A DNA stretch of 64,000 nucleotides from an uncultured Pseudomonadales bacterium (GCA_964570365.1 CAZMXT010000004.1:2792-66791), one strand, 5' to 3'; shown: positions 1 through 39,718, numbered from the stretch's first letter. Notes: generated by a model from the letters alone, not told the origin. Translations and numbers: made by a program.

Positions 1-183
1 GATATTATTTCTGAAGAAAAACCAAGAGCACCGTTATTGCTAAAAGACTATGGCTTTGAGTGGCTTTGGAGGATTTTACTCGAACCAAGAAGGTTGGCCA
101 GAAGATACTTTGCAGATGTTTTGGCTCTCACACAGCTGTTTATAAGCCATTTATTAAAAAAACTCAGACTTAACCTTAAATAG
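1..183 (+). CDS. WecB/TagA/CpsF-family (GT26) glycosyltransferase, C-terminal fragment (5' end outside window)
   Basis: Frame 1 is open from position 1 to TAG at 181-183. The translation ...YGFEWLWRILLEPRRLARRYFADV... matches the conserved C-terminal motif of TagA/WecG-type transferases. Confidence 0.5.
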   Translation, partial: DIISEEKPRAPLLLKDYGFEWLWRILLEPRRLARRYFADVLALTQLFISHLLKKLRLNLK

Positions 184-564
184 CCTTACTTTAGCCTGGG
201 TATCAGAATAAAGTGTACGAATGAGAGAGATCTTGGGTAGAAGAAGGTTGCATTCATACTCAAAGTTTGAGTGCCACTCAGCATTAAGATACTCATAACT
301 ATAGACTGTAATTAAAGTTTTCTCACCCAAATCACTTTGACCGAACTTGCAATCATATTTGCCTGGTAGGTCTATACTGTTAAAGTTAAGTTGACGGTAT
401 GTTAAGAAATTATTAGGATACTTTAAGTTGTGTTCTTTATGCATAAGCTCAGTGTTTCCATAACTAAAGAAAGTGGCATCGTCTTCAAAAAAATAAAGTA
501 CTGAGTCATATTGATAGGCAACTGCTATGTTTATGACGCTTTCTGTAAGCGGAGGCTCATTCAA
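154..564 (-). CDS. hypothetical protein
   Basis: 136-aa ORF with no motif I recognise. It fills the gap between two flanking genes. Confidence 0.3.
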   Translation of the reverse strand: MNEPPLTESVINIAVAYQYDSVLYFFEDDATFFSYGNTELMHKEHNLKYPNNFLTYRQLNFNSIDLPGKYDCKFGQSDLGEKTLITVYSYEYLNAEWHSNFEYECNLLLPKISLIRTLYSDTQAKVRLFKVKSEFF

Positions 565-751
565 GTTATTGGGGTGCAGGTCAGTACAGCAAAATCCCAG
601 TGAACATTCTGTTCCTGTTGTGCAACTTTATAAATTGAAGCAATAAGTAAAAAGAAGAATACCAAAAAGAAGAGGCTCCATAAAATTATGAGGTGATTCT
701 GAGTGGACTTTTTACTTTTTCTAATGAGATTTTTCATAAACTTAAGCTAAT

Positions 752-1456
752 CTAGAAATTCACAAAATGGTCCCAACTTCTCATATCACCGCTATGCTTT
801 TGCAAAATACAAAAACTTCCTTGATATTCACGACTTATTCTCTGTAGTCTTCGCTCGTCCCAAAAAAGGATGTTTTTAATAACCCATTCGTCATTTGCAT
901 CAATATTCCACAACTTAAATGGTAAATTCTTAATTAAGAACATCACTGCCTTGCGAACAGACGGATTCCATAAGTTGCGAATAATTAACACTCCGCCATT
1001 TTGCAAAAATTTAGTTGCAAAGTAAATGTCTGTCATGATTCCATCAAATCGTTCATCACCATCCATAAAAAGAAGATCTACTTTTTGATTTAATTTTTTT
1101 AAATTGGAACCAAAAAATTCTTGAGAACTTTGTGAAACAAAATTAATATTCTTCAATTGGAATCGCTCAACTGCCTTCAGGCCCATCATTTCAAAGTTGT
1201 CTTGAAAGTGATCCAATACATAATGTTGTTTAGGTCTAAAAGGTCCTTTCTCCATCCATAGGGTGGAGATGCCGTATCCCAGACCGATTTCTACTATTAG
1301 TTTTGGTTTAAAATCGTTAACAAATTTATTTAAAAAACTTCCTTCACCATAATTAATCGAAGTAGGGAAGTACTTTTTCCTCTGCTCTGCAAATTCTTCT
1401 CCAAAATATATTCCCTCTAAAAAATTCGATATAGTGTTGTCTCGTTTGAATGCCAT
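752..1456 (-). CDS. class I SAM-dependent methyltransferase (sugar/O-methyltransferase-like)
   Basis: Rossmann motif I (LIVEIGLGYGIS) and acidic motif II (LLFMDGD) are present. It sits within a sugar-modification cluster. Confidence 0.6.
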   Translation of the reverse strand: MAFKRDNTISNFLEGIYFGEEFAEQRKKYFPTSINYGEGSFLNKFVNDFKPKLIVEIGLGYGISTLWMEKGPFRPKQHYVLDHFQDNFEMMGLKAVERFQLKNINFVSQSSQEFFGSNLKKLNQKVDLLFMDGDERFDGIMTDIYFATKFLQNGGVLIIRNLWNPSVRKAVMFLIKNLPFKLWNIDANDEWVIKNILFWDERRLQRISREYQGSFCILQKHSGDMRSWDHFVNF

Positions 1457-1478
1457 AATAGCTATTCTAATCTAGATT

Positions 1479-2360
1479 ATGAAAATTGCCTTATTTGGTT
1501 ATGGCTACTGGGGAAAAATTGTCTATAAGGAGCTGACGGCTCTAGGCCTAAGTGTGATGATTGTCGATCCCACTCTTAAAGATCTGAAAGCGTCCACTCA
1601 AAGTGACGTCTTAAAAGATTCCACAATTCAACATTGTTTTATAGTCACACCTGAAGCTTCTCATTTCAAAGTTGCTCAAGCGTGTTTACAAAAAAATAAG
1701 CATGTTTTTGTAGAAAAGCCTCTTTGCCTGAAAGGGATTGATGCTCAAAAGCTGATTTTTCTCAGCCAACATTATAAGCAGGCGCTTTTCGTAGACTACA
1801 CCTTTCTTTATGACGAGGCCTTTCAATACATTCAGAGATATGTCCAAGAGAAGAACTTTGGCTCGTTAGTCTCTGTGCGCACTGTTCGGCATAGCCAGCG
1901 ACAGTCCCAACAGGCTATCAAGATCAGTGATGACTTAGTCATTCATGATTTGTATATCTTAGAGAGACTTTTTGACTCAAAAATTACTAATTTTGAGATT
2001 CTTTTTGCGCAAAACTCAATGCTCAAGTTACAGTTACTCTTTGAAGACAGCAGAATAGCAACTGGTGAGTACGTGTGGTCTGCTCTAAACTCAAAAAGAG
2101 AGATCACTTTAAAAGGTGAAACTGGGGAACTGACTTGGGATAAAACCCAAGCTATAAATAAAGATCAAATGACAGAAAAGTCTCAGCTAGGAAGTACTAC
2201 TACAGAATACATTAAAAAATCTTCAGCATTAAGTAACTCAGTTCAGGCTTTCTTGGAGTTGTCCAAACATACTTTTGCAAACCCCAATCTAGCTCACGAA
2301 GACTACCTTCGTCACGTTAGAATCCTAGAAGGAATTCATCATGCATGTCCCGCTTTTTAA
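1479..2360 (+). CDS. Gfo/Idh/MocA-family NAD(P)-dependent sugar oxidoreductase
   Basis: N-terminal GxGxxG (MKIALFGYGYWG) and the EKPL motif typical of the family. Confidence 0.8.
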   Translation: MKIALFGYGYWGKIVYKELTALGLSVMIVDPTLKDLKASTQSDVLKDSTIQHCFIVTPEASHFKVAQACLQKNKHVFVEKPLCLKGIDAQKLIFLSQHYKQALFVDYTFLYDEAFQYIQRYVQEKNFGSLVSVRTVRHSQRQSQQAIKISDDLVIHDLYILERLFDSKITNFEILFAQNSMLKLQLLFEDSRIATGEYVWSALNSKREITLKGETGELTWDKTQAINKDQMTEKSQLGSTTTEYIKKSSALSNSVQAFLELSKHTFANPNLAHEDYLRHVRILEGIHHACPAF

Positions 2361-3459
2361 CTTAAAACGCCAGCTTGCCAGCCTAGAAGTTGAGATTCTT
2401 CAGAAATTTCAAAGTTGTATAGAAAATACTGAGTTCACTGTTGGAGCAGAGACAGTTGCTTTTGAAAAAGCTTTTGCTGCGCTTTGTCAGACGAAGTACT
2501 CAGTTGGAGTTGGCTCAGGCACTGCCAGCCTTCTCATAGCTTTAAAAGCTGCTGGAATTTCTGAAGGTGATGAAGTGATCACTACACCATTGAGTTTTGC
2601 TGCCTCTGCCGATACAATTGCCTTGGCTGGAGGAACGCCTGTTTTTGTCGAGACACTTGCTGAAACTGGAAATATTGATCCAAAATCTATCGAACAGCAC
2701 ATTACCCCCAAGACAAAAGGATTGCTGATAGTCCATCTCTATGGTGTCCCGTGTGAGATGGATGAAATTTGCGCTATCGCGAAAAAGCATCATCTTTTCC
2801 TGATCGAAGATGCTTCACATGCCCATGCCAGTCTATATAAAGGCCAGCCAGTTGGGTCATTTGGGTTAGGTGGGTGCTTTTCTCTGTATCCTTCCAAAAC
2901 ATTGGGAGCGTTAGGAAATGCGGGGGTAGTTGTATCGAGCAATAAAGAATTTATTAAAAAAGTTCGGATGTATGCCCATCATGGAATTGCTGACTTAGCG
3001 CATAAGTACTCACATTCTGTACATGGCTATAACGAACTGATTGATAATCTCCAAGCTGCTGCCTTGAATGTCAAAATGAGGCGGTTACGTCAGTGGATTG
3101 TCCGGAAAACTGAGATTGCAGTCATATACAACCGGACTCTCCAACAACTTAATCAACCTGGAATGTGCTTCCCTGATAACACTCAGCCATCTTTATATGT
3201 TTTTGCAATTCAGGTCAATAAAAGAACAGAATTCCAAGAGTTTTTAAACAAAAAGGGGATCGAGACAGGTATCTACTATCCTACCCCCCTGCACCTTCAG
3301 CAATCCTTCAGCAACAGAAAAGACCTAAAACAGGTAAAGCTGAGTTTTCCGCTCGCAGAAACTTTTTTTGCTCAAACAATGTCTCTTCCACTTTATCCAG
3401 AATTAACAGATCTGGAAGTTGAGTATATTTGCCAAGCTATTAAAGAATTCTTTCAATAA
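2341..3459 (+). CDS. DegT/DnrJ/EryC1/StrS-family PLP-dependent nucleotide-sugar aminotransferase
   Basis: DEVITTPLSFAASADTIALAGGTPVFVE signature and a PLP-lysine context (SLYPSKTLGALGNAG). It overlaps the upstream gene by 20 nt, suggesting translational coupling. Confidence 0.85.
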   Translation: MHVPLFNLKRQLASLEVEILQKFQSCIENTEFTVGAETVAFEKAFAALCQTKYSVGVGSGTASLLIALKAAGISEGDEVITTPLSFAASADTIALAGGTPVFVETLAETGNIDPKSIEQHITPKTKGLLIVHLYGVPCEMDEICAIAKKHHLFLIEDASHAHASLYKGQPVGSFGLGGCFSLYPSKTLGALGNAGVVVSSNKEFIKKVRMYAHHGIADLAHKYSHSVHGYNELIDNLQAAALNVKMRRLRQWIVRKTEIAVIYNRTLQQLNQPGMCFPDNTQPSLYVFAIQVNKRTEFQEFLNKKGIETGIYYPTPLHLQQSFSNRKDLKQVKLSFPLAETFFAQTMSLPLYPELTDLEVEYICQAIKEFFQ

Positions 3460-3512
3460 AGTCAGCTCTCTATTGTTTAAGAGGTGATGCTCAGGATACA
3501 CTTGATGTAGTT

Positions 3513-5678
3513 ATGTTAAAGTTAGATCAAGTCTTATTTTTTCTTGGCTACTTTAGTTTGCTGTTCTTACTTTTAACCCTAGGTGATGTTGAAATTGTGG
3601 TAGTTTGGCTTGGTCTGATTGCGTCTTTTTTCTTTCTTTTTAGAGAAAAACTCACTTTGAATTTTTATCAACCTGGCTTCCTCGCTGCGACGTTACTGTT
3701 GAGCGTGACTGTCTTTTCTTTACTCACCACCGTGAGTTTGCCAGCTACTGTCTTAAGAATATTGGTGTTCTTAGGAGCTTTCTTAGCTTTCCTCTTCTTT
3801 CTTCGTCTAGATAAGAAATGGATCTCTGACGAGCTGCTGGCCTTAGGTTTTGTAGCCGTAGGTGTGGCAATTTCCCTGCTTACTTTAATCCTCCTTATTT
3901 TCCCTCAGATAAGTAGTAGGTTGCCGCCAATGAACCTGCTCGTCTCGACGTATGGCCATAACCATGCGGCGACATACTTGGGTTTTTCACTTCCTCTAGC
4001 TTTTTACTTCTGGTGGGAAAGGAGAAGTCGTTGGGTTTCGATTGCTCCATTACTGATTATTATCCTGGGGTTGGCACTTACGTTTGCTAGATGGTCAATT
4101 CTCGTTTCGCTCATATTGTTCTTTATCTTATTGAGCCGGGTTCCAACTTCTCGGAAACAGAAGCTGCTCTCGTTCGTCATAACACTCCCAATCCTGGTAT
4201 CAATTTTTATTCTGAGCTTCTTCAGTTTAGGTAAAACTGAGTGTCCTTTTTTAAGTTATCAATCCCAGTTGTGTAAATCTATTCAGGTAGAGGCCAGGCC
4301 AGAGTATTGGCAGCAAGCCATTCAGGGCCTGAAAGAAAAGCCGCTGTTTGGTTGGGGACCAGGAGCCTATTTTATTAATTCCAGAAAAAATGCTGAAGGG
4401 GCAGCCTTTTATTCAGCCTATGCTCACAATGAGTATCTTCAGATCTTGGCTGAGTATGGGTTGCTGGGTGGGGGAATTTTCTTGATCTTTCTTGCTTTTT
4501 TATTTAGGAGAGCTCTCGGTATTATCTTCCAAAAATATTCCCTACATACAGCTCTTGCAACGTCAGTACTCTTTCTGCTCTTGGATGGATTACTTGACTA
4601 TAACTGGACCTTCTCCGGTATTTTATGTATTCTTTTTTCAACGGCAGGTCTCATTTTCCGAGAGTCGGTCTCAAAGCCTTTAGTAACTTCTCCAGCTGTG
4701 AAGAAGTTGTATAAGCTTGTTTACCTAAGTATCACTACTACAATAATTCTTCTTAGTCTCCTGGCTTCTGTATCTTTGCTTTTGGGGAAACTGAAAAAGC
4801 CGGAAATAGCTAATCAATTTTTTCCTTTTTTTGAGTTTCAAACAGAGCGGTTACTTAGCTCTGAAAATTTTCCTCAGTCTCAATCTCAGCTCATAGCAAC
4901 TCTCTACTGGAATCACTCCACTATTTTGTCTAAGCTCTCTCAATCCGGTTATGAGCAGGAGCATAAAGCTCAGTTATTGACGCAAATGATTGCGCTGGAA
5001 CCGAAGAACTTGCTCTATCAGAAAGAAAGACGCAAACTGCTCATTGAGGCGAAAGATTGGCAAGGCTTGATCCAGCAAGCGCGAGACTTTCGTGTTGTGT
5101 ATCCTGGTACAACAATCTGGAATCTCTCTGAGGCTAGCCACCTGCAAATTGTTGATGAGTTGGTCAAAGCAGGAAATAAGGCTCTCGCTGATGACCCGGA
5201 GGCTGCTGCTGCTCTCTATTTGGCAGCCTATGACCTTAATCCATGGCTGATCAATGCTACTGATTTTGAGGTGAACATGTTCCAGCAATTGAATAGTCTT
5301 GAAGATGCAAAAGCGCTCGCCTTTCTAGGCTCATTTCAAGTTCAGGATATTGGCAGATACCATCCAGTTATAGGGGATTGGTGTCGGGGGAAGATCAAAG
5401 AGAAGATCATCGGTAGTCAATGGCATGAAGTGTCTGAGTATACACAGTGCGTACTTCGCTTTTCGCCTTGGAGTGGTCACTTAGTCTGGCTCGATGCTTC
5501 TCAAGTTTTTATGGCACATCCTCAATTTAAAGTAGGAAAGCCAGCTGAGCAAAGATCCTTCGTTCAGAGTTGGGCAGAAGTGCATACGATCTTAAGTTCT
5601 CATAAAGGGGAGTATGAGCTGGATAAAAAATCTGAGGAAGAGCTAGCTCTCTATCTCAACGAAGTAGACAAGCTATAG
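3513..5678 (+). CDS. O-antigen ligase/Wzy_C-family polytopic membrane protein with C-terminal TPR-like helical domain (candidate O-oligosaccharyltransferase)
   Basis: About 12 predicted TM helices. Wzy_C motif WGPGAYF...YAHNEYLQILAEYGLLGG. A roughly 330-aa soluble helical C-terminal extension follows. Confidence 0.7.
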   Translation: MLKLDQVLFFLGYFSLLFLLLTLGDVEIVVVWLGLIASFFFLFREKLTLNFYQPGFLAATLLLSVTVFSLLTTVSLPATVLRILVFLGAFLAFLFFLRLDKKWISDELLALGFVAVGVAISLLTLILLIFPQISSRLPPMNLLVSTYGHNHAATYLGFSLPLAFYFWWERRSRWVSIAPLLIIILGLALTFARWSILVSLILFFILLSRVPTSRKQKLLSFVITLPILVSIFILSFFSLGKTECPFLSYQSQLCKSIQVEARPEYWQQAIQGLKEKPLFGWGPGAYFINSRKNAEGAAFYSAYAHNEYLQILAEYGLLGGGIFLIFLAFLFRRALGIIFQKYSLHTALATSVLFLLLDGLLDYNWTFSGILCILFSTAGLIFRESVSKPLVTSPAVKKLYKLVYLSITTTIILLSLLASVSLLLGKLKKPEIANQFFPFFEFQTERLLSSENFPQSQSQLIATLYWNHSTILSKLSQSGYEQEHKAQLLTQMIALEPKNLLYQKERRKLLIEAKDWQGLIQQARDFRVVYPGTTIWNLSEASHLQIVDELVKAGNKALADDPEAAAALYLAAYDLNPWLINATDFEVNMFQQLNSLEDAKALAFLGSFQVQDIGRYHPVIGDWCRGKIKEKIIGSQWHEVSEYTQCVLRFSPWSGHLVWLDASQVFMAHPQFKVGKPAEQRSFVQSWAEVHTILSSHKGEYELDKKSEEELALYLNEVDKL

Positions 5679-6180
5679 TGGTAACTAACAAGAGAACATC
5701 TTTAGCAATACTTCCATCTCGTAACGTATTCTCTTCCAATTTCCTCCACTTCTCCAAAGAAAAATATCTCTTTGGATCAATCGCCCAAAGTGAGATCACC
5801 CCTGGTTTTACCTGGTATCGAAACTCCCACTCTTTGTCTAGTTTCTTCGCTTCTGCGAGAGGTAGGGGGCGAGGGCCAACGAGGCTCATTTCGCCTCTTA
5901 GAATATTTATTAGTTGAGGCAGTTCATCCAAACCGCTGCGAGACAGAAACTTTCCTAGGAGAGTAAAGCGGGGGTCATCTTTCATTTTAAACATTGGCCA
6001 GGGCGCTTCATTCTGGCCCAATAAAGTCTTTTTTTGCTTTTCTGCTCCCACAGTCATGGTACGAAACTTAATCAGGGGAAATGAACGCTTCTGGTACCCA
6101 ACTCGCTGCTGGATGAAGAGAATTGGCCAGCCACTCGTAATAAAAACGCCAATGAGGATCAAAAGAAAAATTGGCCACAA
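5656..6180 (-). CDS. small monotopic phosphoglycosyltransferase (PglC/WbaP-C-terminal-like bacterial sugar transferase)
   Basis: 174 aa with a single N-terminal hydrophobic helix and conserved KFRTM...DELPQLINILRGEMSLVGPRP motifs. Confidence 0.8.
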   Translation of the reverse strand: MWPIFLLILIGVFITSGWPILFIQQRVGYQKRSFPLIKFRTMTVGAEKQKKTLLGQNEAPWPMFKMKDDPRFTLLGKFLSRSGLDELPQLINILRGEMSLVGPRPLPLAEAKKLDKEWEFRYQVKPGVISLWAIDPKRYFSLEKWRKLEENTLRDGSIAKDVLLLVTTIACLLR

Positions 6181-6323
6181 AAGAAGAATCGCTAAAATCG
6201 CTGAAGTAACGTCAAAAAGACGTTTCTGTGAACTAAAGTAGTAGGGTGAGATGAACTGGCTAGAAATATCTCTGTATCTTAGTTCATCTTACTAGTATGA
6301 ACAAGCGATATTGTTGAGCGGAG

Positions 6324-7838
6324 TTAAGTAATATCCTTAGGATCATCGGCGTTGGCAAAATCAGCTTCGTTTGCGCCTCGACTTTGCCAATAACTCCAGA
6401 TTCCAGTGGCAATGCAGAGAAATCCGCCTGCTAGAAGCATTAAAGTAGTGCCTACAGAACCAGATTTAGGTAACGCACTTGAGGTAGATGGCATGGTTAC
6501 TCGGGGAGAAGCACTGGTGCTGGCACTTGATGAAGCAGTTGGTGATGGTGAAAAAAGAGGACTAGGTGACGGAATCGTAAACGGGTTATTGGTCCCAAAC
6601 GGAGTTGGTGAGGTATTTGCTTGAGCTAGTAGTCTGCTGGTCGCAGTTGAACTGACATAAAAAGTTTTGGTCTCTGTTTTTTGCTGGCCGGTTGCAGGAT
6701 CTGTATAGGTGATAGTCACTGAGTGCTCACCTGGCTCAAGTTCTTTCTCTCCTAGTGAGAGAGGGAGAGAAAAATTCCCAGCTGCATCAGCAGTCACTTG
6801 AGTAACAATTTGAGTTTCTGAGTTAACCTGAATAGTTACCACTACGCCAGGAGCTGCTTTACCCATAATGGTAGGTTGAGTGGTGTTCACCGTTGGCTGG
6901 TCTACCTTGTCTAAGTTGACTGTTACAACCTCAGTAGCAGCTGGTGTCGGAGAATCTTCTGGTAGCGGAGAAGGTGACTCACTTGGTAAAGAGCTCGGAT
7001 TTTCTGCAATCACGTCATTTTCTGCCTTATCAGGGTCTTCATCTTCACTGCTGCTATCTGTAGTGAAAGTATCTGTATCTGGCTGGGCTGCACCACCTAA
7101 ACTGATCGTGCGAACTGGCTGTGACTCGTCAACCGTAACTTGGAGTGTAGTTGTACTGGAAATTTGAGGACCCTGAACAAAAAGGTTGAGTGTTTCAGTA
7201 GAACTTACGTCAACTGGTTCTAAGGAATCTCTTTTACGAGCATTGGAGAGAGGGATTGCCCAGCTCCCAGAACTGCGCACCAGAGTAGAAAGCTCTCCTA
7301 CTTCAGGAATAGTTAGGTAGACAACTGCACCTTCGGCGGGAGAGCCACTTGCAGCCATAATATTTCCATAAACAGTTTTCGCAGCTGTAGTTGCTCTGGC
7401 GCGTTTAGCAGTTTTGACGGTAAAAGGTGCGCCATTATTATCATGCTTAGAGACTGAGGCAGTCCCCAAGGTAAAGTAATAGTCCTTATCAGGATCAACA
7501 TTCTTGACGCTAATATGATGAGTAGAGTATTGGCCAACACTACCAGACAATTGGTCTCGATCATCACTCGCCTGGAGCTTGAGCTCAGTGGCAATTTCTC
7601 CATACTTAATAAAACCACTGGTAGCTTCATCTGTTAAAAAAGAAACCGTAAAGCCCGTGTCATTCACATTCGTCACTTTAATATTTTGAGGGGTAGTCTG
7701 CGGAGTAGCTCGAGGGGTAAAAACTCCTCCTCCAGTTCCAATCATAGCAATCCCACCAATTAAGGAGAGAATAAGAATTCCAATACCCAGTAAGGTTGGA
7801 ATTTGACGTTGGGCAGTTCTTTTTTGAAAAGCAGGCAT
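6324..7838 (-). CDS. cell-surface protein with N-terminal signal anchor, Ig-like/CarboxypepD_reg-like domains, Ser/Thr/Pro-rich linkers and C-terminal LPKSG + TM segment
   Basis: N-terminal TM (LLGIGILILSLIGGIAMIG). Low-complexity PT/S-rich stretches. A GNFSL Ig-like segment. C-terminal LPKSG is followed by a hydrophobic helix and an acidic tail. Confidence 0.6.
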   Translation of the reverse strand: MPAFQKRTAQRQIPTLLGIGILILSLIGGIAMIGTGGGVFTPRATPQTTPQNIKVTNVNDTGFTVSFLTDEATSGFIKYGEIATELKLQASDDRDQLSGSVGQYSTHHISVKNVDPDKDYYFTLGTASVSKHDNNGAPFTVKTAKRARATTAAKTVYGNIMAASGSPAEGAVVYLTIPEVGELSTLVRSSGSWAIPLSNARKRDSLEPVDVSSTETLNLFVQGPQISSTTTLQVTVDESQPVRTISLGGAAQPDTDTFTTDSSSEDEDPDKAENDVIAENPSSLPSESPSPLPEDSPTPAATEVVTVNLDKVDQPTVNTTQPTIMGKAAPGVVVTIQVNSETQIVTQVTADAAGNFSLPLSLGEKELEPGEHSVTITYTDPATGQQKTETKTFYVSSTATSRLLAQANTSPTPFGTNNPFTIPSPSPLFSPSPTASSSASTSASPRVTMPSTSSALPKSGSVGTTLMLLAGGFLCIATGIWSYWQSRGANEADFANADDPKDIT

Positions 7839-7916
7839 AAACTAATCAATTTACTTTAGGTGAATGCCGGGTGGAATACAACGCGAAGAAGGTCCGAAAC
7901 ACAGTCATGACAACAG

Positions 7917-8324
7917 CTATGGGGAAGGTACTTCTTCAACTACTGGAAGAGGAGTGGGGCTCTGTCCTACAGTCTCAGTCTCAGGGCCGGCAATAGCAGG
8001 AGTAGCTGGAGGTTGGTACGGGTATGAGGGTGAGTCCACGATGACAGTTTTTTTGCCCGTCTCATCTTCGGTGAAAAGAAAGAGTGGGAAGTCAGTCAGC
8101 TCTTCTGATTGATAGCCTTTTTTTTGCTCAATCCGTGAAACAACTTCCAAGTTGATATTGGGATTGAGTGGCTCAGCTAAACGAAGCAGCTCCGGAGATG
8201 TCTCAGTCACTTGCTGGGTTCGAAAAATGCTAATTCCTATCCAGATCATGGCGGTTACAAACGTAAAGATTAGAATCCGCAAAACAGCTTGGCGTTGTTT
8301 TAAATCTTGTAAATGACTTTGCAT
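7917..8324 (-). CDS. small membrane protein in pilus-assembly cluster (PilP-like position; function unknown)
   Basis: One TM helix near the N-terminus and a Pro-rich C-terminus. It lies directly downstream of the pilO-like gene on the same strand. Confidence 0.4.
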   Translation of the reverse strand: MQSHLQDLKQRQAVLRILIFTFVTAMIWIGISIFRTQQVTETSPELLRLAEPLNPNINLEVVSRIEQKKGYQSEELTDFPLFLFTEDETGKKTVIVDSPSYPYQPPATPAIAGPETETVGQSPTPLPVVEEVPSP

Positions 8325-8331
8325 AATTATT

Positions 8332-8994
8332 CTACTTTGTTTCTACTGGTTGTGCAGGGTCAGCGGATGTCGTGGCATTGGCCGCTTCTAAATCATAGTA
8401 AGGAATATTGAGGGTGACTGTGGCTTGAAGGCCTTTTTCGCCAACTTGCTCCACTTTATTAAATAGAATTGAATCGACGGTAAAGACCCGGCGAACAGCC
8501 CTCAGGTCTTCTATAAACTTGCGAATGACTAGGTACTTACCATCAAGAATTACCACGACTGGCCTTGAAACCCGACTTTTTCGAGAAAAGAGTACATCTG
8601 GGTCAGTTTCCTGCGGTACTTGTTTCGCCTCAATCGAGGAAATAGTTAAGTTGTTTTCGCTGGCAACTTTTTCAATAATCGCCAGGGCAGTTTCAAATTG
8701 AGGCGTGGGAGGAATGGCTTCATCTAGTACTCCCAAACGTTCTTGGTTAGTGATGTACGTAGATTGGAGAGTAGATAGTGACGCAACTTTTTCTGCCAGT
8801 TTTTGATTTAATACCTGTTTGTCTTCCATTTCTTTAATCAACTTAGACATTGTCAGCAGCGTGGGGCGGATTGCAAAAACAGCAAAGAAAACAACTGCAA
8901 TGGCAGTAAAGAATAATTCTAATGAAACCTTTGCCACGGGCTTATCGTAAAACTGTTTCAGGGTATTCTGGATTTGTTTTTGTGTATTGATCAT
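8332..8994 (-). CDS. pilO: type IV pilus assembly protein PilO-like
   Basis: About 220 aa with an N-terminal TM followed by a coiled-coil, which is typical PilO architecture. It follows the pilN-like gene with a 1-nt gap. Confidence 0.6.
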   Translation of the reverse strand: MINTQKQIQNTLKQFYDKPVAKVSLELFFTAIAVVFFAVFAIRPTLLTMSKLIKEMEDKQVLNQKLAEKVASLSTLQSTYITNQERLGVLDEAIPPTPQFETALAIIEKVASENNLTISSIEAKQVPQETDPDVLFSRKSRVSRPVVVILDGKYLVIRKFIEDLRAVRRVFTVDSILFNKVEQVGEKGLQATVTLNIPYYDLEAANATTSADPAQPVETK

Positions 8995-8995
8995 G

Positions 8996-9556
8996 CTACT
9001 TAGGCTTTACTTTGGTGGTAACTGCTTGAATACGGAACTCAAAACCGCTGTTCTCGAGTTGGGCAGTTTCAATTTTCTCGACATCCACATCACTAAATCG
9101 ACCAGAAAACTGTAAGTTATTAATTAGTAAGCTCAGTGAAACATTAGACCGAGCCACTCCATTCAGAATTACTCTACCTGGCTGAATCTCTAAAGAATCC
9201 ATCACCACATCATTCGGGGTAATTTGAGTGAGAACTGGGAAAATTTCAATAATGTTTTCTTGCTGTTCAACTTGGATATAGTTGGTAGTTTTTTTCTGAA
9301 TCGCTTTAATGTTCTCTTCGAGATCTCCATAGGAATTAATAATAGATTTTTTTTGTTGAATAGCACCATTGAGATCGGTAATTCGACGATCAAGAGTGAA
9401 GCGACTAGCAAAACTTAAGATCACGATAACTTCAGTGAAAATGATTAAATATCGACCCACAGACATCGCCCACTGCAATAATTTGCCCAGTGGCGTATCA
9501 AGAAAAGGATCTTTAGGTAGTAAGTTCACCTGAAGGGACACCGGCTTTTTCATCAC
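8996..9556 (-). CDS. pilN: type IV pilus assembly protein PilN-like
   Basis: 186 aa with a short cytoplasmic N-terminus (LQVNLLPKD), one TM and a periplasmic domain, which is the PilN topology and start motif. Confidence 0.65.
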   Translation of the reverse strand: MMKKPVSLQVNLLPKDPFLDTPLGKLLQWAMSVGRYLIIFTEVIVILSFASRFTLDRRITDLNGAIQQKKSIINSYGDLEENIKAIQKKTTNYIQVEQQENIIEIFPVLTQITPNDVVMDSLEIQPGRVILNGVARSNVSLSLLINNLQFSGRFSDVDVEKIETAQLENSGFEFRIQAVTTKVKPK

Positions 9557-9603
9557 TTCATTGTATACATGAAAGGTAGCTCTAGACCAGTATTAGCTTG
9601 GGA

Positions 9604-11289
9604 TTAAAGCTCATCACCTTCGGTAGTGGGTTCCAAGAATACTTCATCGCTCTTGGCCAGGGTTTTGCGCCAGTTGCCTAATTTATCGAGAATATTTTGT
9701 AAGATATACAGCTCTCGAATATCGAACAACATGGCAAAGTAAGTGTAAACCAGCATGCCAATAGTGCCTGTGGTGAGAGTAAGCAGTATTAACTCAACTG
9801 TGCGACTGGTGTCAAAAACTAACTCATCCAAAATTCTAAACGGCAAGTAAAGAAAGATTGCCATGAAAAAGCTGGCAGTTATCATTTTTAGCTGTGGAAT
9901 CCAGAACGCTTTTCTAGCAAAACCCATTACTTTTTGGTCTAGACAGTATAAGAATAGCAACATTTCACCGATGTTGGACATGGTAATTGCGAGTGCCATG
10001 CCAATCACTCCCAGCTTCATCTGAAAAGCAAAGAGCCAACTCAAAAATAAGTAGGTCACCACAGTTAAAAAAGTAATGAAAAGCGGTGTCTTGGTGTCTT
10101 TCAGGGCATGAAAAGATCTAATCAGCAACTGCACAATTGCCTGTGCTGCTATAGAAAGCGAGATAATCGCTACTACCCGGCCGGTGGTGAGCGTGGTGGC
10201 CCAAGGAAAGTTATGAGTGCCATATGCAATTCGGACAATCGGAATCCGCAGAATTAATAAGAGAACGGCTGCCGGAAAAGCAAAAAAAGAAATTTGGTGT
10301 ATAGACTTGAGTACTAAATCCCGGAATCGACCCAGGTCCTTCTCATCGGCCTCATCAGCTAAGAACGGTAAAGCTGCCTGGCTAATTGGCACGCCAAAGA
10401 AGCGAATAGGCATCGTCATCAGGGAAAAAGCCAGGTTCATAACGACATAACTTAAGTTTCCGATTGAAGTCGTAAAGTAGCCATTGGCTAATTGTTGCAG
10501 TTGGCTTATGGCTAAGCTGGAAGTGCGGGCAGGGGTCAGCTTATAGGTATTTCTTACACCTGCGTGACGAAATGAAATCGCAAATCTAAAACGGAAACCG
10601 AGTTTATAGGCCAATGGTAACTGGATCAGCATATGAAGCGCAGCGCCAATTACTACTCCAATCCCAGCAGCATAAATTCCAAAGCGATCGGAAAGAGTGT
10701 ATGCCCCAATCAGAATTCCAACATTGTAAAAAATGGGAGAGAGCGCAGGTAAAATAAAACGCTTATAAGATTGCAACATCCCAGTCATAAAGTTGGAGAT
10801 GGCAAAAAAGAACTGTGCAGCCAGCATGATCCTGGTTAAGTTTGCTGCAATCTGCACCTGCTCCGAAGTAAATGCTGCACCAGTTCTCAGGCGAGTGAAT
10901 GGCTCGGCAAATATAAAAACGAAGATCGAAACCACTAGAAAGAAGAGTAAAACGCTGGTCATCATCAGGCTCATATAGCGTTGCTCCTCTGCCTTATCAT
11001 GTTTGTAGCTGGCGAGCATCGGGATAAAAGCTGCCGAAACCGCACCTAAAACAATCAACTGAAACATCAAATCAGGAATTTGGAAGGCAACCAGAAATGC
11101 CTCAAATGCTTGCTGGGAGCTGGGAGTGTCAAAAAAATGCGAAATGAGCAGCCGCTGGCGAATTACCCCCGAGAGTGATGAAACAATATTGGCAATCGTA
11201 ATGACAACAGCAGCTGACAAAATGCTAGTTTGCTGTCCTTCGAGCCAGTCAGTGTACGAGGTAAATAATTTAGGGAGACGGAAGACCAT
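9604..11289 (-). CDS. murJ: lipid II flippase MurJ (MviN family)
   Basis: 561-aa polytopic membrane protein. The N-terminus (ILSAAVVITIANIVSSLSGVIRQRLLISHF) is typical of MurJ/MviN. Confidence 0.85.
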   Translation of the reverse strand: MVFRLPKLFTSYTDWLEGQQTSILSAAVVITIANIVSSLSGVIRQRLLISHFFDTPSSQQAFEAFLVAFQIPDLMFQLIVLGAVSAAFIPMLASYKHDKAEEQRYMSLMMTSVLLFFLVVSIFVFIFAEPFTRLRTGAAFTSEQVQIAANLTRIMLAAQFFFAISNFMTGMLQSYKRFILPALSPIFYNVGILIGAYTLSDRFGIYAAGIGVVIGAALHMLIQLPLAYKLGFRFRFAISFRHAGVRNTYKLTPARTSSLAISQLQQLANGYFTTSIGNLSYVVMNLAFSLMTMPIRFFGVPISQAALPFLADEADEKDLGRFRDLVLKSIHQISFFAFPAAVLLLILRIPIVRIAYGTHNFPWATTLTTGRVVAIISLSIAAQAIVQLLIRSFHALKDTKTPLFITFLTVVTYLFLSWLFAFQMKLGVIGMALAITMSNIGEMLLFLYCLDQKVMGFARKAFWIPQLKMITASFFMAIFLYLPFRILDELVFDTSRTVELILLTLTTGTIGMLVYTYFAMLFDIRELYILQNILDKLGNWRKTLAKSDEVFLEPTTEGDEL

Positions 11290-17501: not shown

Positions 17502-18191
17502 ATGCCGTTGCATATTGCGATCGATGGTCCAGTTGCCGCTGGCAAAGGGACTGTAGCTCGTTTGGTTGCCCAGCGACTTGGTTTACTCTACATCGACACT
17601 GGCGCGATGTATCGGATGACGGCGTTATTGGCAACACGTCATCAGGTGGATTGTAGTGATGAAGCCAAAATTCTCGATTTGCTGGCTCAATCCAAGATGC
17701 ATATGCGTAACCCTATTGGGGAAGAGCAGGATGGTCGTTTGAGCACTGTTCTGTTAAACGATGAAGATGTGTCCTGGGAGATTCGCACCGAGAAAATCAG
17801 TGTTGGGAGCTCTAAGGTCGCAGCTCTAAAAGGCGTCCGAGAGTTTCTCGTCAGTAAACAACAGCAAATTGCCAATGATCAAGACGTGGTGATGGAAGGT
17901 CGAGATATTACCTATAAAGTTTTACCGAACGCCAATCTGAAAATTTACTTAACTGCTACGCCAGAAGTTCGAGCCAAACGTCGCCACTTTGAGCTCCAGT
18001 CCCGAGGTCAAGATGTGAGTTATGAAGATGTCTATCAGGACTTGCTTCGTCGAGACGAACAAGATACAACTAGGAATGTTGACCCGTTAAAAATAGTCAG
18101 TGATGCATGGATGCTCGATACAACGAACTTAACCATCGAAGAAGTCGTGGACTTAATAGTTAAACGCGCTCAGCCTTTACGTTCATCATGA
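17502..18191 (+). CDS. cmk: cytidylate kinase
   Basis: IAIDGPVAAGKGTVARLVAQRLGLLYIDTGAMYR is the cmk signature. It terminates with TGA, confirming TGA is a stop in this genome. Confidence 0.9.
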   Translation: MPLHIAIDGPVAAGKGTVARLVAQRLGLLYIDTGAMYRMTALLATRHQVDCSDEAKILDLLAQSKMHMRNPIGEEQDGRLSTVLLNDEDVSWEIRTEKISVGSSKVAALKGVREFLVSKQQQIANDQDVVMEGRDITYKVLPNANLKIYLTATPEVRAKRRHFELQSRGQDVSYEDVYQDLLRRDEQDTTRNVDPLKIVSDAWMLDTTNLTIEEVVDLIVKRAQPLRSS

Positions 18192-18454
18192 AATTTTTTT
18201 CCCGAGGCAAGAAAAACGAGGCAGAAGAGCAGGAAGTATCGCCTGATGATGAGTTATTAGATAAAATTGATGAGCTCCAAAAAACCACTCAAGAAATAGA
18301 GGAAGAAAAATATCAAAAGAAGCTCGCTCGTGAGGAACGAAAGTTCCACAAAGAGCAGGCGTTGAAGCGCAAAAAACGCGAACGTTGGGTTGCGCCAGTT
18401 CTATTACTCCTGACAATACTCGTTTCCTACTTGGTGTGGATTTTTTCTCGTTAA
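18188..18454 (+). CDS. small coiled-coil protein with C-terminal TM helix
   Basis: 88 aa, start overlapping the cmk stop (ATGA). Charged coiled-coil followed by a hydrophobic tail. Confidence 0.4.
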   Translation: MKFFSRGKKNEAEEQEVSPDDELLDKIDELQKTTQEIEEEKYQKKLAREERKFHKEQALKRKKRERWVAPVLLLLTILVSYLVWIFSR

Positions 18455-20826
18455 CGTTGGGTTGAAGTCCCATTCAAAATTCTATCTCTCGTAGGTACCT
18501 GGGACGGCCTGGCTGATGGTCTAGGTGAAGAATACAACTGGTTTGGAGTGCAAGCCAGCTTGGGCTGAGTGCCAGCGACAAACAATTCCTCTCTGACCAC
18601 GGGACAGCCGCGACAAGGGAGGGTACCAGTTTTGACACAGATCTGAACTTTCACTAAGCCTTCCGGTGTCGTAAAACGGTGTGGAGCTTCATCACTGAGA
18701 GAAGTTCGTATAATTTTATTCCAGATTGGAGAGGCTCCGGTAATACCTGAGGCAACATAACTCATCGGGGTATTATCATTATTACCCACCCAGACGGACA
18801 CCACTCGGTCGGTAGTGTATCCAAAGGTCCAGTTATCTCGCAAGTTGTTGGTAGTTCCCGTTTTAACGGCCACCTGTTGGTTGGGAATCGTCAGCACTGA
18901 GTTGGGGCCAAAGCCAGAAGTGCGGGCGACGTTATCAGCTAAAATATCAGTGATCTGATAGGCAACTTTGGCATCCAAGGTTTTAGTTCGGACGCACTCA
19001 GTTTTCTCCAACGCGCATGTATTTTTATAGAGTACTTCTCCTTTGGAGTTGCGAACCTCTAAGATTGGGTTGAGTTTGACGGTGTATCCACCATTGGCAA
19101 AAGTGCCATAGACCTGGGCCATCTCAGTCATCAAGATCTCTCCGCCTCCTAAAGTTAAAGACAGACCAAAGCGTTTTCGGTCCTGCCAAGTGGTGATGCC
19201 CATCTGTTCAGCTTTATCAAGCATGGTGGAAATGCCAATCGAGGCGAGGGTTTTCACCGCTGGGATGTTATACGAAGAGCCAAGTGCCTCTCGGATAGTT
19301 ACGTTGCCGTGAAAGCGACCATCATAGTTTTTGGGTGAGTACGGGGGAGAGCCAGCCACTTGGAAGGTAACGGGTTCATCAGCGATGGTGGAAGAGGGGC
19401 TTTTACCATTTTCCAAAGCAATCGCATAGGTCAACGGTTTAATTGAGGAACCAGGTTGGCGGGGGCGCAGAGTGACGTTGACCTGACCATCGTTGGCAAA
19501 GTCAAAGTAGTTTTTACTCCCAACCATTGCGAGTATTTCGCCAGTCTGAGGGGCAGTCACTAAGGCTGCACCATTGGAAATACGCAGCCGAGCTAGGTTA
19601 TCTAATTCTTGAGAGACCAGCTCTTGAGTTTGATCCTGGGTCTTCAGATCCAACGTTGTTCTGACTTCAAGTCCACCTTGATTCACTACATCTTCGCCAT
19701 AGTCTTCGGCGAGTAAATTCTTAACGTACATCACAAAGTGAGGCGCTCGAATGTCTGTCATATCAGGACGGAACTGTAAGATTTCGGCTCTGGCCTGTTG
19801 AGCTTCTTGCTCAGAAATGTAGCGATCTTCTACCATTCGTCGCAGAACTTCGCGTTGGCGTCCGTAGGCCAGCTCAGGGCTAGGACCGAATGGTGAGTAA
19901 ACTGAAGGGGCTGCTGGTAGCCCCGCCAGGAAAGAACTCTCAGCCAGATTAAGCTGGATGGCTGCTTTGCCAAAGTATTGTTGGGCTGCTTCTTCAACGC
20001 CATAGGTGGAGCCACCATAGGCAACTTCATTGAAGTACATCTCTAAAATTTCTTCTTTGGTGAAGGTGCCTTCGAGCAAGAGTGAGAGGAGTACTTCACG
20101 AATCTTGCGCTTGAGGGTTTTCTCTCTACTGAGGAGGGTGTTTTTAACCAGCTGTTGAGTAATCGTAGAACCACCTTGGAGCTTTTCTCCTTGGGAGTTT
20201 TCTCGAACTGCACGCAGAATTCCCTTTATAGAAAAACCATGGTGAGAGAAGAAGTAGCGATCTTCAATCGCTACTGTAGCGTTCTTCATCTGGTCAGGGA
20301 CGGCAGATAAGGAAATTAAGGTTCTATTCTCATCTTTGTAAATGCGGTAGAGCACCTCACCATTTCGATCCAGAATCTTCGTCGTTAAAATTTGTTGTCT
20401 TTTCGTGAGGTCGCTTACTTGAGGTAGGTCTCTAAAAACAATTTCGTAGGTGTAGTGTGCAGAAGCCAGGATGGCTACGCTGATTAAAATAGAGAAGATG
20501 GTTAACCACGGGTGGAAACGAATAACAAAGTAAAAAGGTTGAAGCAGCTCTTTCCAGATGAAGCGAAGAACAGGATTGGGTGGGCGAGGGCGTGTTCGCG
20601 GCCGACCGGGCTTTTTTTTTACCGCTGGTTTGGCTAAAAGCGCGAAAAACCAGTACCTGACTCCCTTTCCAGAAACAGTAGATGGAGTACGAGTTGGGAG
20701 TTTCTGAACCCTATTTTTTTTAGATTTTGCAGCAGTAGGCTGAGCTTTTTTGGCTTTTTTTCGAGGCGCAACTTTGGGGTAAATTATGATCGAATTTTTT
20801 CGCCTGATGGGTGGACGTTTAGCCAT
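18451..20826 (-). CDS. class A penicillin-binding protein (bifunctional GT51 transglycosylase/transpeptidase)
   Basis: GT51 motifs (EDRYFFSHHG, TITQQLVKN) and transpeptidase motifs (SSIKP, KTGTT). About 100-aa Lys/Pro-rich cytoplasmic N-terminal extension. Confidence 0.9.
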   Translation of the reverse strand: MAKRPPIRRKNSIIIYPKVAPRKKAKKAQPTAAKSKKNRVQKLPTRTPSTVSGKGVRYWFFALLAKPAVKKKPGRPRTRPRPPNPVLRFIWKELLQPFYFVIRFHPWLTIFSILISVAILASAHYTYEIVFRDLPQVSDLTKRQQILTTKILDRNGEVLYRIYKDENRTLISLSAVPDQMKNATVAIEDRYFFSHHGFSIKGILRAVRENSQGEKLQGGSTITQQLVKNTLLSREKTLKRKIREVLLSLLLEGTFTKEEILEMYFNEVAYGGSTYGVEEAAQQYFGKAAIQLNLAESSFLAGLPAAPSVYSPFGPSPELAYGRQREVLRRMVEDRYISEQEAQQARAEILQFRPDMTDIRAPHFVMYVKNLLAEDYGEDVVNQGGLEVRTTLDLKTQDQTQELVSQELDNLARLRISNGAALVTAPQTGEILAMVGSKNYFDFANDGQVNVTLRPRQPGSSIKPLTYAIALENGKSPSSTIADEPVTFQVAGSPPYSPKNYDGRFHGNVTIREALGSSYNIPAVKTLASIGISTMLDKAEQMGITTWQDRKRFGLSLTLGGGEILMTEMAQVYGTFANGGYTVKLNPILEVRNSKGEVLYKNTCALEKTECVRTKTLDAKVAYQITDILADNVARTSGFGPNSVLTIPNQQVAVKTGTTNNLRDNWTFGYTTDRVVSVWVGNNDNTPMSYVASGITGASPIWNKIIRTSLSDEAPHRFTTPEGLVKVQICVKTGTLPCRGCPVVREELFVAGTQPKLACTPNQLYSSPRPSARPSQVPTRDRILNGTSTQR

Positions 20827-20888
20827 GTTGCGGATCTTAACATATCATCCTATATCCATCAATTATGTGCTAACGAAAATTTAGTACT

Positions 20889-24579: not shown

Positions 24580-24611
24580 ATAAAAGCTTGTAGTTACTAA
24601 TTCGTTGCTCT

Positions 24612-24635
24612 ATAGTGGAGAGATTATCCACTATT
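24612..24635. promoter_or_regulatory. perfect 8-bp inverted repeat ATAGTGGA-N8-TCCACTAT (candidate operator) between divergent PBP and HEPN-like genes
   Basis: Read directly from the sequence. It ends 12 bp upstream of the ATG at 24647. Confidence 0.3.
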
Positions 24636-24646
24636 GACCATGTTTT

Positions 24647-25141: not shown

Positions 25142-25169
25142 TAAGTAAATAGTATGTATAATTCTGTAT

Positions 25170-26514: not shown

Positions 26515-26561
26515 TATATTTGACTTTCACCCCCATACTTGATACAATTTTTCCTTGCTCT

Positions 26562-39591: not shown

Positions 39592-39644
39592 AGCAGAAAA
39601 GGCATCATGACCTTGACAAGGTTGTAGTCTGAAGAGAGTGAGAG

Positions 39645-39718
39645 TGTCAAGGGGGAGACTCGAACTCCCAACCTCCACGTTATGAGTGTGGCGCTCTAAC
39701 CAGTTGAGCTACCCTGAC
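39645..39718 (-). tRNA. tRNA with CAU anticodon (elongator Met or Ile2-lysidine type; G1-C72 paired)
   Basis: Hand-folded cloverleaf: GTCAGGG/TA/GCTC-AACTGGTTA-GAGC/G/CCACA-CTCATAA-CGTGG/AGGTT/GGGAG-TTCGAGT-CTCCC/CCTTGAC/A. 74 nt, CCA not encoded. Confidence 0.85.

Follow-up and report, generated by a model that had tools for sequence, protein, structure and literature searches.

The right-hand end of a glycan-assembly island was found in a CPR bacterium that has no LPS context. In the reading that we favour, tentatively and with a probability of about 0.4, a 721-aa Wzy_C protein would transfer an assembled glycan en bloc to a surface-protein acceptor such as S504, a 504-aa protein encoded nearby. 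The features of the window (the whole 64,000-nucleotide stretch analysed) that bear on this reading are as follows.

1..183, + strand: GT26 WecG/TagA-family glycosyltransferase, C-terminal 61 codons of 246 aa (PF03808)
154..564, - strand: hypothetical ORF of at most 136 aa, no family
752..1456, - strand: SAM-dependent methyltransferase Methyltransf_24, 234 aa (PF13578, E 8.7e-9)
1479..2360, + strand: Gfo/Idh/MocA sugar oxidoreductase, 293 aa (PF01408, E 2e-11)
2341..3459, + strand: DegT/DnrJ/EryC1 PLP-dependent sugar aminotransferase, 372 aa (PF01041, E 1.9e-104)
3513..5678, + strand: Wzy_C-superfamily protein, candidate en bloc glycan ligase or O-oligosaccharyltransferase (O-OTase), 721 aa (PF04932)
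5656..6267, - strand: small monotopic PglC-like initiating phosphoglycosyltransferase, PGT (PF02397 Bac_transf, E 5e-44)
6324..7838, - strand: S504, conserved CPR surface protein with fn3-like and Big_13 domains, 504 aa
7917..8324, - strand: p135, bitopic membrane protein with a Pro/Thr-rich tail, no known family
8332..8994, - strand: PilO homologue, 220 aa (PF04350, E 8.7e-8)
8996..9556, - strand: PilN homologue, 186 aa (PF05137, E 3.9e-13)
9604..11289, - strand: MurJ lipid II flippase homologue, 561 aa (PF03023, E 8.5e-70)
18451-20826 and 22087-24579: two class A PBPs

The glycan island and its host

A preliminary description of this DNA had proposed a protein O-glycosylation locus fused to a type IV pilus cluster, and as a whole its interpretation is partly supported. 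The genes that it listed are all present with significant family matches, including MurJ (E about 9e-70) and the two class A PBPs nearby, and the gene content supports a glycan-assembly locus. The host genome is that of an uncultivated, ultra-small bacterium of Patescibacteria/CPR (Pacebacteria/Microgenomates-type), and CPR bacteria are known to lack LPS. The earlier claim that an LPS context is lacking agrees with this, as a search of about 87 kb (the window and its flanks) revealed no lpx, waa or lpt genes and the relatives of the window are all Patescibacteria.

Window positions 1-6267 form the right-hand end of a glycan island of about 26 kb, which contains at least seven glycosyltransferases, sugar-modifying enzymes, the small PglC-like PGT and two Wzy_C proteins, the second of which (527 aa) adjoins a DUF4330 protein. 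The rest of the GT26 gene lies left of the window and is complete at 5931-6671 on contig L001 (99.97% identical to the window, offset 6488), with a translation that includes GFEWLWRILLEPRRLARRY. Contig L087 shares 6 kb with the window's contig, at about 90% identity, and carries a GT4 gene in place of the hypothetical ORF and the methyltransferase. Upstream it encodes a Wzm/Wzt-like ABC-2 permease with an ABC ATPase and further glycosyltransferases, and this exporter was seen only in L087. The best explanation is that the island is strain-variable and that 1-6267 is its conserved end. The hypothetical ORF, which is 96 aa long in the JGI gene call (window 154-444), occupies a strain-variable spot.

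The Gfo/Idh/MocA and DegT genes overlap by 20 nt. The former product is likely a nucleotide-sugar 3-dehydrogenase, although its match to UDP-GlcNAc 3-dehydrogenase is weak (46 bits, far under the cut-off), and the top match of the DegT protein is PseC-type (223 bits, under the equivalog cut-off). The methyltransferase probably modifies or caps the glycan.

The PGT consists of the Bac_transf catalytic domain alone and is 51% identical to a 200-aa relative. Its longest canonical ORF is 5656-6180 (TTG start, 174 aa), while the conserved N-terminus (SPYYFSSQKRLFD) extends in frame upstream of 6180, where only ATC (6252) or ATT (6267) could serve as starts. This in-frame N-terminus reads SSQKRLFDVTSAILAILLLWPIF, with a KRxFD motif and a Pro-containing re-entrant helix. 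From the upstream stop (6291-6289) to the conserved N-terminus, the frame offers no ATG, GTG or TTG, and the PGT could be inactive in the window strain. The PGT and Wzy_C/TPR genes are convergent and their 3' ends overlap, both in the window and in contig L003.

The Wzy_C/TPR protein as a candidate ligase

The 721-aa protein contains a Wzy_C domain at residues 180-324 (E 1.4e-18; 67.5 bits against a Pfam gathering threshold of 31.7). On the helices of the AlphaFold model, 13 TM helices are predicted, 9 before the catalytic loop (residues 239-306) and 4 after it, and residues from about 430 to 721 form all-helical repeats. The helix count and the predicted cytoplasmic loops, every one of which is rich in Arg/Lys, put the predicted position of this C-terminal domain outside the membrane. 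The name "TPR-like" given to it earlier is backed by these repeats and by one TPR unit in the family profile, which matches consensus TPR proteins, but the window protein itself has no such Pfam match. The protein is a member of a large subfamily, so far uncharacterised, whose full-length architecture is kept in 451 cluster representatives (50% identity, E<=1e-30), and all homologues with known genomic context (24 of 24) are in Patescibacteria contigs.

Across 22 family members, R193, R262 and H305 do not vary, and neither do G148, H151, C244, C254, G280 and G282. In a profile alignment, the three residues align with R224, R298 and H349 of PDB 9rmk, which we take from its sequence to be PglL. 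Catalytic roles have been reported for these PglL residues (PMC3643930), and the conserved triad of E. coli WaaL is R215, R288 and H338. The earlier claim of a Wzy_C protein with an extra C-terminal domain is in this respect confirmed, with a ligase/O-OTase triad and a repeat domain predicted outside the membrane. Neisseria PglL shares the Wzy_C domain, the aligned triad, a G-x-G motif after the loop and an extra C-terminal domain outside the membrane (predicted here), and a C-terminal TPR motif has been reported both in PglL and in the S-layer O-OTase WsfB (PMC2943079). However, neither the window protein nor any of 7 relatives has PglL_A (PF15864) or Wzy_C_2, at a threshold as loose as E<=1. 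At the PglL_A sites, the equivalent of H400 is N/D, there is no Pro at P406 and E404 is replaced by Asp, so only the acidic residue is retained. The invariant loop pair C244/C254 is specific to the subfamily, the host here has no outer membrane, and the region of PglL Q178/N180 (PglL_B) did not align; at residues 147-151 the family carries a YGHNH motif of its own.

The family profile scores 34.8 bits against PglL (9rmk) and 28.7 bits against WaaL of Cupriavidus metallidurans (7tpg, E 5.5e-6), a margin of only 6 bits and a modest similarity even to PglL, and the sole significant Foldseek match is WaaL (E 1.5e-4). The profile scores give no firm grouping with WaaL, and the absence of the PglL-specific PglL_A motif weakens the earlier interpretation. 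WaaL and TacL have the fold core and catalytic loop in common with the protein, and transfer en bloc from an Und-PP-linked donor, as is proposed here. It is conceivable, though rather unlikely, that the acceptor is not a protein but a TacL-like glycolipid or another envelope polymer. The product of the island would then be a secondary wall polymer or one resembling teichoic acid, with S504 adjacent by synteny only. Besides the Foldseek match, there is a precedent for this in a monoderm, since pneumococcal TacL, a Wzy_C protein, links teichoic acid chains built on Und-PP to a membrane glycolipid (PMC5727136). The TagA/WecG-type GT26 enzyme of the island is typical of wall-polymer linkage units, the neighbours are cell-wall-themed (MurJ, and a class A PBP and GH18 in relatives), and most species (40 of 58) have no glycan genes adjoining S504. 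However, TacL and WaaL are proteins of about 400 aa with 12 TM helices and no external repeat domain, compared with 721 aa, a thirteenth TM helix and an external repeat domain of about 300 aa here, which is kept full length in the 451 representatives. Nothing in this locus evidently corresponds to their acceptors (glycolipid, lipid A-core), and neither the 64-kb window nor its flanks showed LCP or LTA-type genes.

Pfam Wzy_C spans polymerases as well as ligases, and because the island has two Wzy_C proteins, the roles could be split differently. The 721-aa protein might then be a Wzy-type repeat-unit polymerase, with attachment by the 527-aa protein or by an enzyme encoded elsewhere, a division that two Wzy_C proteins per island would fit, as would a MOP-family flippase (MurJ) close by. 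We consider this quite improbable, since MurJ is universally conserved with or without the island and is thus a housekeeping flippase, no Wzx flippase or Wzz-type regulator of chain length turned up in the island, and the close relative has a Wzm/Wzt-type ABC exporter, a pathway that needs no Wzy. The Arg/Arg/His triad also aligns with ligase and O-OTase structures, and a large external TPR domain is normally missing from polymerases. On our analysis, the protein is best read as an en bloc glycan ligase, most plausibly an O-oligosaccharyltransferase for surface proteins such as S504.

The murJ-pilN-pilO-p135-S504 block and the candidate acceptor

The PilN and PilO homologues are genuine; for example, the PilO family profile matches Myxococcus PilO (3jc8) at E 2.5e-7 over nearly its full length. 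In canonical PilN, an INLLP motif binds PilM, and PilN here has a conserved N-terminal INL-PKDPF motif of this type. As in the PilM-PilN-PilO subcomplex, the two genes are adjacent and co-oriented. In Saccharibacteria, pilM, pilN and pilO are grouped with pilB and pilC (PMC11623550). Here, in contrast, no pilM/B/C/T/D or pilin-family genes (Pfam) were found in about 87 kb (the window with about 23 kb of flanks), and the pair is fixed between murJ, the first gene of a conserved block, and the clade-specific p135 and S504. This block occurs in 65 of 65 related species, whether glycan genes are adjacent or not, and p135 always lies between pilO and S504. A type IV pilus gene cluster was therefore rejected, as only pilN and pilO are present, inside a conserved envelope block; of the fusion proposed earlier, the pilN/pilO part stands and the pilus cluster does not.

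Pilins were likewise named earlier as possible targets, which would make the enzyme a pilin-directed O-OTase (PglL/TfpO type, the latter being PilO of P. aeruginosa) acting on pilins assembled with the adjacent PilN/PilO. Apart from these homologues, the occurrence of type IV pili in CPR and the pilin glycosylation predicted there (PMC11623550) are in its favour. Nevertheless, it is very unlikely. No prepilin motif (G[FMLIVAY][ST][LIVF][LIVPMT]E) was found in any frame of the window and 6.6 kb upstream, and no pilin gene lies in the 87 kb, whereas known pilin O-OTase genes usually adjoin their pilin (21 of 31 cases; PMC3643930). PglL_A is missing, and pilN/pilO exist in all the species, mostly without adjacent glycan genes.

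S504, described earlier as a Ser/Thr/Pro-rich surface protein, is indeed of this kind. From its N- to its C-terminus it has a TM helix, three beta-sandwich domains, two linkers (about 254-302 and 401-449) that are disordered and Ser/Thr/Pro/Ala-rich (about 30% Ser+Thr), a conserved [LI]P[KRV]SGS motif and a second TM helix. Known PglL-family enzymes prefer disordered Ser/Ala/Pro-rich segments, which the linkers match, and S504 is a plausible but unproven candidate acceptor. The linkers show no difference in composition according to whether a species has the PGT and Wzy_C/TPR pair next to S504. Two PMT_2-type GT-C enzymes encoded elsewhere in the window could be alternative glycosylators of S504-like linkers.

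The pair lies beside S504 in 31% of species (18 of 58). In the window's deep clade, 61% of the deep-branching species (19 of 31) retain it there, with the remainder of the island changing, and in the sister clade none of 22 has it there. In 16 of 18 species, the PGT is on the strand of S504 and starts 13-169 bp past its stop, and the island end, which abuts the murJ-pilN-pilO-p135-S504 operon, is probably partly co-transcribed with it. However, synteny is just as strong for the unrelated neighbours S20 and LepA (47 of 47), so adjacency alone is weak evidence. The argument from physical linkage is thus weakened, though the position of the PGT directly downstream of S504 in many relatives still speaks for it.

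Proposed route and its meaning

In the favoured reading, the PglC-like PGT would place a sugar phosphate onto undecaprenyl phosphate at the cytoplasmic face, and GT26, GT2 and GT4 enzymes would extend the glycan. The Gfo/DegT pair may supply a 3-amino sugar, and the methyltransferase may modify or cap the chain. The lipid-linked glycan would cross the membrane via a Wzm/Wzt-type ABC exporter, presumably also in the window strain. The Wzy_C enzyme would then transfer it en bloc from Und-PP to the acceptor by its outward-facing Arg/Arg/His loop, with the external TPR-like domain recruiting the acceptor. The likeliest acceptors would be Ser/Thr in disordered Ser/Thr/Pro-rich segments of surface proteins, and S504, whose gene is immediately upstream of the PGT gene, would be the prime candidate.

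This logic would be that of Gram-positive S-layer O-glycosylation (WsaP, Wzm/Wzt, WsaB/WsfB) and not of pilin glycosylation. The slg clusters of Geobacillus stearothermophilus NRS 2004/3a and Paenibacillus alvei share with this locus an LPS-free envelope, an initiating polyprenyl-phosphate sugar-phosphate transferase, several glycosyltransferases, methylation, a Wzy_C-domain transferase and a glycan cluster near a surface-protein gene. They also have an ABC-2 exporter, of which a counterpart was seen in L087 (about 90% identical). The likeness to WsaB/WsfB is drawn from described features. In contrast to the slg clusters, where the initiating enzyme (WsaP/WsfP) is of the large WbaP type, the PGT here is small and PglC-like, there is a second Wzy_C protein, and S504, as acceptor only putative, is a membrane-anchored stalk with three beta-sandwich domains and not a recognised S-layer protein.

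A wider proposal, which we regard as unlikely, is that the Wzy_C/TPR subfamily is the first CPR lineage of protein O-oligosaccharyltransferases and decorates S504, which with PilN, PilO and p135 forms a CPR-specific envelope-spanning module. If this is true, the module would be a pilus-alignment complex remodelled to suit an envelope that has no outer membrane, and the hypervariable glycan would provide a serotype-like surface identity toward hosts and phages.

Gene content of the locus

According to the ORF map and the Pfam and NCBIfam scans, every gene in the list of the preliminary description is present, in the following arrangement.

752-1456, minus strand: methyltransferase (Methyltransf_24)
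1479-2360, plus strand: Gfo/Idh/MocA oxidoreductase (Pfam/NCBIfam scans)
2341-3459, plus strand: DegT aminotransferase (E 2e-104), overlapping the preceding Gfo/Idh/MocA gene by 20 nt
3513-5678, plus strand: Wzy_C protein, 721 aa (E 1.4e-18), hereafter the Wzy_C/TPR protein
5656-6180, minus strand: phosphoglycosyltransferase (PGT; Bac_transf)
6324-7838, minus strand: surface protein S504, 504 aa (fn3/Big_13)
7917-8324, minus strand: p135, 135 aa, no family
8332-8994, minus strand: PilO
8996-9556, minus strand: PilN
9604-11289, minus strand: MurJ
18451-24579: two class A PBPs and a GH18 gene

The GT26 fragment at the left edge also proved genuine: a 246-aa WecG/TagA gene on the JGI contig Ga0163149_10000086 (L001; 99.97% identity with the window) ends at window position 183. 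The remaining genes of the window are housekeeping genes of a CPR flavour (Sua5-TsaE fusion, DUF5667, short IF-2), and MAGs of Patescibacteria, Pacebacteria, Woesebacteria or Microgenomates are the source of all the related loci (80 of 80). Two tRNA-Met genes occupy 39644-39718 and 42021-42090; the second is closely followed by a gene for a tyrosine recombinase of the phage-integrase family (42633-43499), and a dockerin-domain protein is encoded at 40781-41557. This region could represent a small integrated element. Beyond the right end of the window, at a distance of about 6 kb, lies a gene for a 1413-aa SufB with multiple inteins and LAGLIDADG domains (17879-22120 of the stretch L088).

The conserved N-terminus of the PGT (ISPYYFSSQKRLFD..., as in its relatives) precedes the first canonical start in the same reading frame, and no ATG, GTG or TTG exists between the upstream stop and this N-terminus (5656-6291, minus strand). 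The only possible starts are ATT (6267-6265; 203 aa) or ATC (6252-6250; 198 aa), which give lengths like those of the relatives; the JGI gene caller reports a truncated product of 133 aa. Either an ATC or ATT start may be used, or the start codon may have been lost in the strain of the window.

A conserved envelope operon

The genes on the right side of the locus had been taken for a type IV pilus assembly cluster, with pilins among the possible glycosylation targets. PilN and PilO are genuine homologues by Pfam; the PilO family profile matches Myxococcus PilO (3jc8) over nearly the full length (E 2.5e-7), and PilN has a weak match in the PDB. Besides these two, no pilM, pilB, pilT, pilC, pilD or pilin-family gene was found in the 64-kb window, 13 kb to its left or 10 kb to its right, and scanning the window plus 6.6 kb upstream for prepilin motifs gave no match. 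In Saccharibacteria, pilM, pilN and pilO are grouped with pilB and pilC (PMC11623550), whereas here pilN and pilO stand with no pilM, pilB or pilC nearby. Neither the pilus cluster nor the pilin target is upheld by this gene content, and a pilin-specific O-oligosaccharyltransferase (O-OTase) is among the less likely roles for the Wzy_C/TPR protein.

A set of 80 species-level S504 loci was fetched and annotated using HMMs derived from the proteins of the window. The p135, PilO, PilN and MurJ genes are located upstream of S504 in all loci having enough sequence (65 of 65), and S20 and LepA, which are transcribed divergently, occur in 47 of 47; the block is thus a fixed part of a strongly syntenic region. 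What had been read as the "pilus" side is a conserved envelope operon rather than a pilus cluster, and murJ-pilN-pilO-p135-S504 appears to form an uncharacterised CPR envelope module that lacks pilM and sits in a peptidoglycan-synthesis neighbourhood. In the sister clade of the window's clade, genes for GH18 and a class A PBP stand back-to-back with the five-gene block.

A variable glycan island linked to the operon

The glycan genes of the window belong to a larger, variable island, of which they form one end. Its continuation on the JGI contig, left of the window, comprises GT2, a second Wzy_C protein (527 aa), DUF4330, GT2, GT4, epimerase and GT26 genes. A relative contig (L087), about 90% identical over the common 6 kb, runs further with three to four additional glycosyltransferases, and its extra stretch contains an ABC ATPase and an ABC-2 permease (a Wzm/Wzt-like exporter). 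In L087 a GT4 gene takes the place of the 96-aa ORF and methyltransferase segment of the window strain, so the island is variable even between close strains; past this replacement 100% identity with L001 resumes over 113 bp, and the difference has the appearance of mosaic, recombination-like variation inside the island.

The second Wzy_C protein (~520 aa) and the DUF4330 protein that follows it (420-2833 of L001) recur as a pair in the islands of two other loci carrying the Wzy_C/TPR gene (L002 and L006). Outside the catalytic motif, the island's two Wzy_C proteins share no detectable similarity, and a literature search on DUF4330 found nothing.

Adjacency was counted in the 58 species whose sequence continues for at least 4 kb past S504. 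Among them the PGT is found in 18, a Wzy_C/TPR homologue in 18 and both in 17, and in 16 of 18 cases the PGT starts 13-169 bp past the S504 stop on the same strand. In other species S504 is followed by GH18 and class A PBP genes (here at 20889-27086), by giant ORFs exceeding 3000 aa, by LAGLIDADG endonucleases, or by unrelated genes. A giant ORF of ~2800-3300 aa on the same strand follows S504 in several sister-clade species (L041, L056, L063, L069, L071, L082). In L016, L036, L052, L054, L059 and others, S504 is followed by ORFs for LAGLIDADG homing endonucleases and by a 23S rRNA intervening-sequence protein, which suggests that an intron-bearing rRNA operon abuts the block in those loci.

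Adjacency by itself is no proof of functional coupling, because unrelated genes here are equally syntenic, and the raw value of 31% is misleading alone since it is clade-structured. In a neighbour-joining tree of concatenated MurJ, PilN, PilO and S504, the PGT and/or the Wzy_C/TPR gene lies beside S504 in 19 of 31 deep-branching leaves of the window's clade and in none of the 22 of the sister clade, and this pattern is better support for linkage than the raw percentage. In 19 species having the PGT/Wzy_C pair beside S504 (in L074, the Wzy_C gene alone) the rest of the island varies in its make-up, drawing on GT4, GT2, epimerases/dehydratases, GT26 and methyltransferases; the Gfo/DegT genes were found again in one other locus only. 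Given the clade pattern, the PGT and Wzy_C/TPR arrangement looks ancestral to the window's clade and retained through the turnover of the other island genes. This resembles O-antigen and capsule loci, in which conserved genes flank a variable core.

The candidate ligase and its possible acceptor

In a 22-member alignment of the Wzy_C/TPR protein, the YGHNH motif (G148, H151), R193, C244, C254, R262, G280-x-G282 and H305 are invariant. The profile of the membrane domain matches 9rmk ("Oligosaccharyltransferase", 610 aa) at 34.8 bits (E 7.9e-8) and WaaL (7tpg) at 28.7 bits (E 5.5e-6). We identify 9rmk as PglL because P313, G316, G318 and H349 of its sequence are those described for Neisseria PglL in PMC3643930. 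R224, R298 and H349 of PglL align with R193, R262 and H305, a triad common to WaaL; H400 and P406 of PglL are not conserved in the alignment, and the Pfam PglL_A motif has no match in the window protein or seven relatives. The protein does not group firmly with WaaL, yet it does not join the PglL family either; by these scores and motifs, it is roughly equidistant from both.

A single-sequence search against PDB sequences returned only chance ankyrin matches, and family profiles were needed. A word-indexed search found few close relatives even with the 22-sequence profile, so the alignment for AlphaFold was shallow (mean pLDDT 73.6; low beyond residue 580), with the membrane domain at pLDDT 85-95. 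Having nine TM helices before the catalytic loop, four after it and predicted cytoplasmic loops that are all Arg/Lys-rich, the model predicts a location outside the membrane for the C-terminal domain of helical repeats (300 residues). A TPR unit is detected in this domain at the family-profile level; Pfam TPR matches are weak in the relatives and absent in the window protein. At E<=1e-30 an exhaustive profile search yielded 451 representatives of clusters at 50% identity; of the best 150, most align along the greater part of the profile and also over a large share of the C-terminal domain. The family is a large, uncharacterised subfamily, and a literature search combining CPR and O-antigen ligase found nothing.

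S504 has more than 400 relatives with 44-55% identity over the full length. Its AlphaFold model (mean pLDDT 77.9) consists of a TM helix, three confident beta-sandwich domains with two disordered linkers (residues 254-302 and 401-449; Ser+Thr ~30%) and a second TM helix. FAPRATPQTTP (residues 40-50), directly after the N-terminal TM helix, and SDDRDQLSG (residues 89-99), in the first beta-sandwich, are strictly conserved, and the fold search gave only generic tandem FN3/Ig matches, adhesin-like and S-layer-like. The conserved [LI]P[KRV]SGS motif just before the C-terminal TM helix resembles an LPXTG sortase-type sorting signal; no NCBIfam anchor model matches S504 and the window contains no sortase gene. 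S504 was also considered as a prepilin and rejected, having neither Gly at -1 nor Glu at +5.

We propose that the Wzy_C/TPR protein would act as an en bloc ligase. This is favoured over a Wzy polymerase, a less likely role, by the absence of LPS context, by the ligase-type catalytic loop, and by the Wzm/Wzt-like exporter of the close relative, as a Wzy polymerase is unneeded in that export pathway. The glycan acceptor may be a protein, since the predicted external domain is of a protein-interaction type and a C-terminal TPR motif was reported in PglL and WsfB (PMC2943079). Of the rival readings, the strongest is a TacL-like enzyme that would join the glycan to a glycolipid or wall polymer (PMC5727136); it fits the GT26 gene and the cell-wall neighbourhood. 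If the acceptor is a protein, S504 would be the obvious candidate because of its disordered Ser/Thr/Pro/Ala-rich linkers and its place immediately upstream of the PGT; linker Ser/Thr richness shows no meaningful difference between species with and without the adjacent PGT/Wzy_C pair (0.31 vs 0.27, p 0.08), a comparison that informs neither way. We give the protein O-OTase reading a probability of roughly 0.4. In function, the nearest parallel is the O-glycosylation of Gram-positive S-layers (WsaP, Wzm/Wzt, WsaB/WsfB) rather than that of pilins. From the preliminary interpretation, a candidate ligase/O-OTase locus stands; the pilus cluster, reduced to a lone pilN/pilO, and the pilin target do not.

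Two adjacent PMT_2-type GT-C proteins (36332-39678, minus strand; 544 and 575 aa; PMT/ArnT-like, weak Pfam matches) could provide an alternative route to O-glycosylation of Ser/Thr-rich surface proteins or S504-like linkers.

CPR/Patescibacteria are obligate epibionts with tiny genomes, and their surface mediates host attachment; to our knowledge, almost nothing is known about how it is built and decorated. The locus offers a concrete, testable candidate enzyme/substrate pair (Wzy_C/TPR protein and S504), a universally conserved, uncharacterised envelope operon, to which a CPR-specific Wzy_C/TPR subfamily is anchored, and evidence of a variable glycan island anchored to that operon over a deep clade. 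If the Wzy_C/TPR protein is not an O-OTase, the locus would still be a useful marker of surface-glycan diversity, biologically ordinary; if it is, en bloc protein O-glycosylation would be extended to CPR, with a new enzyme class for glycoengineering.
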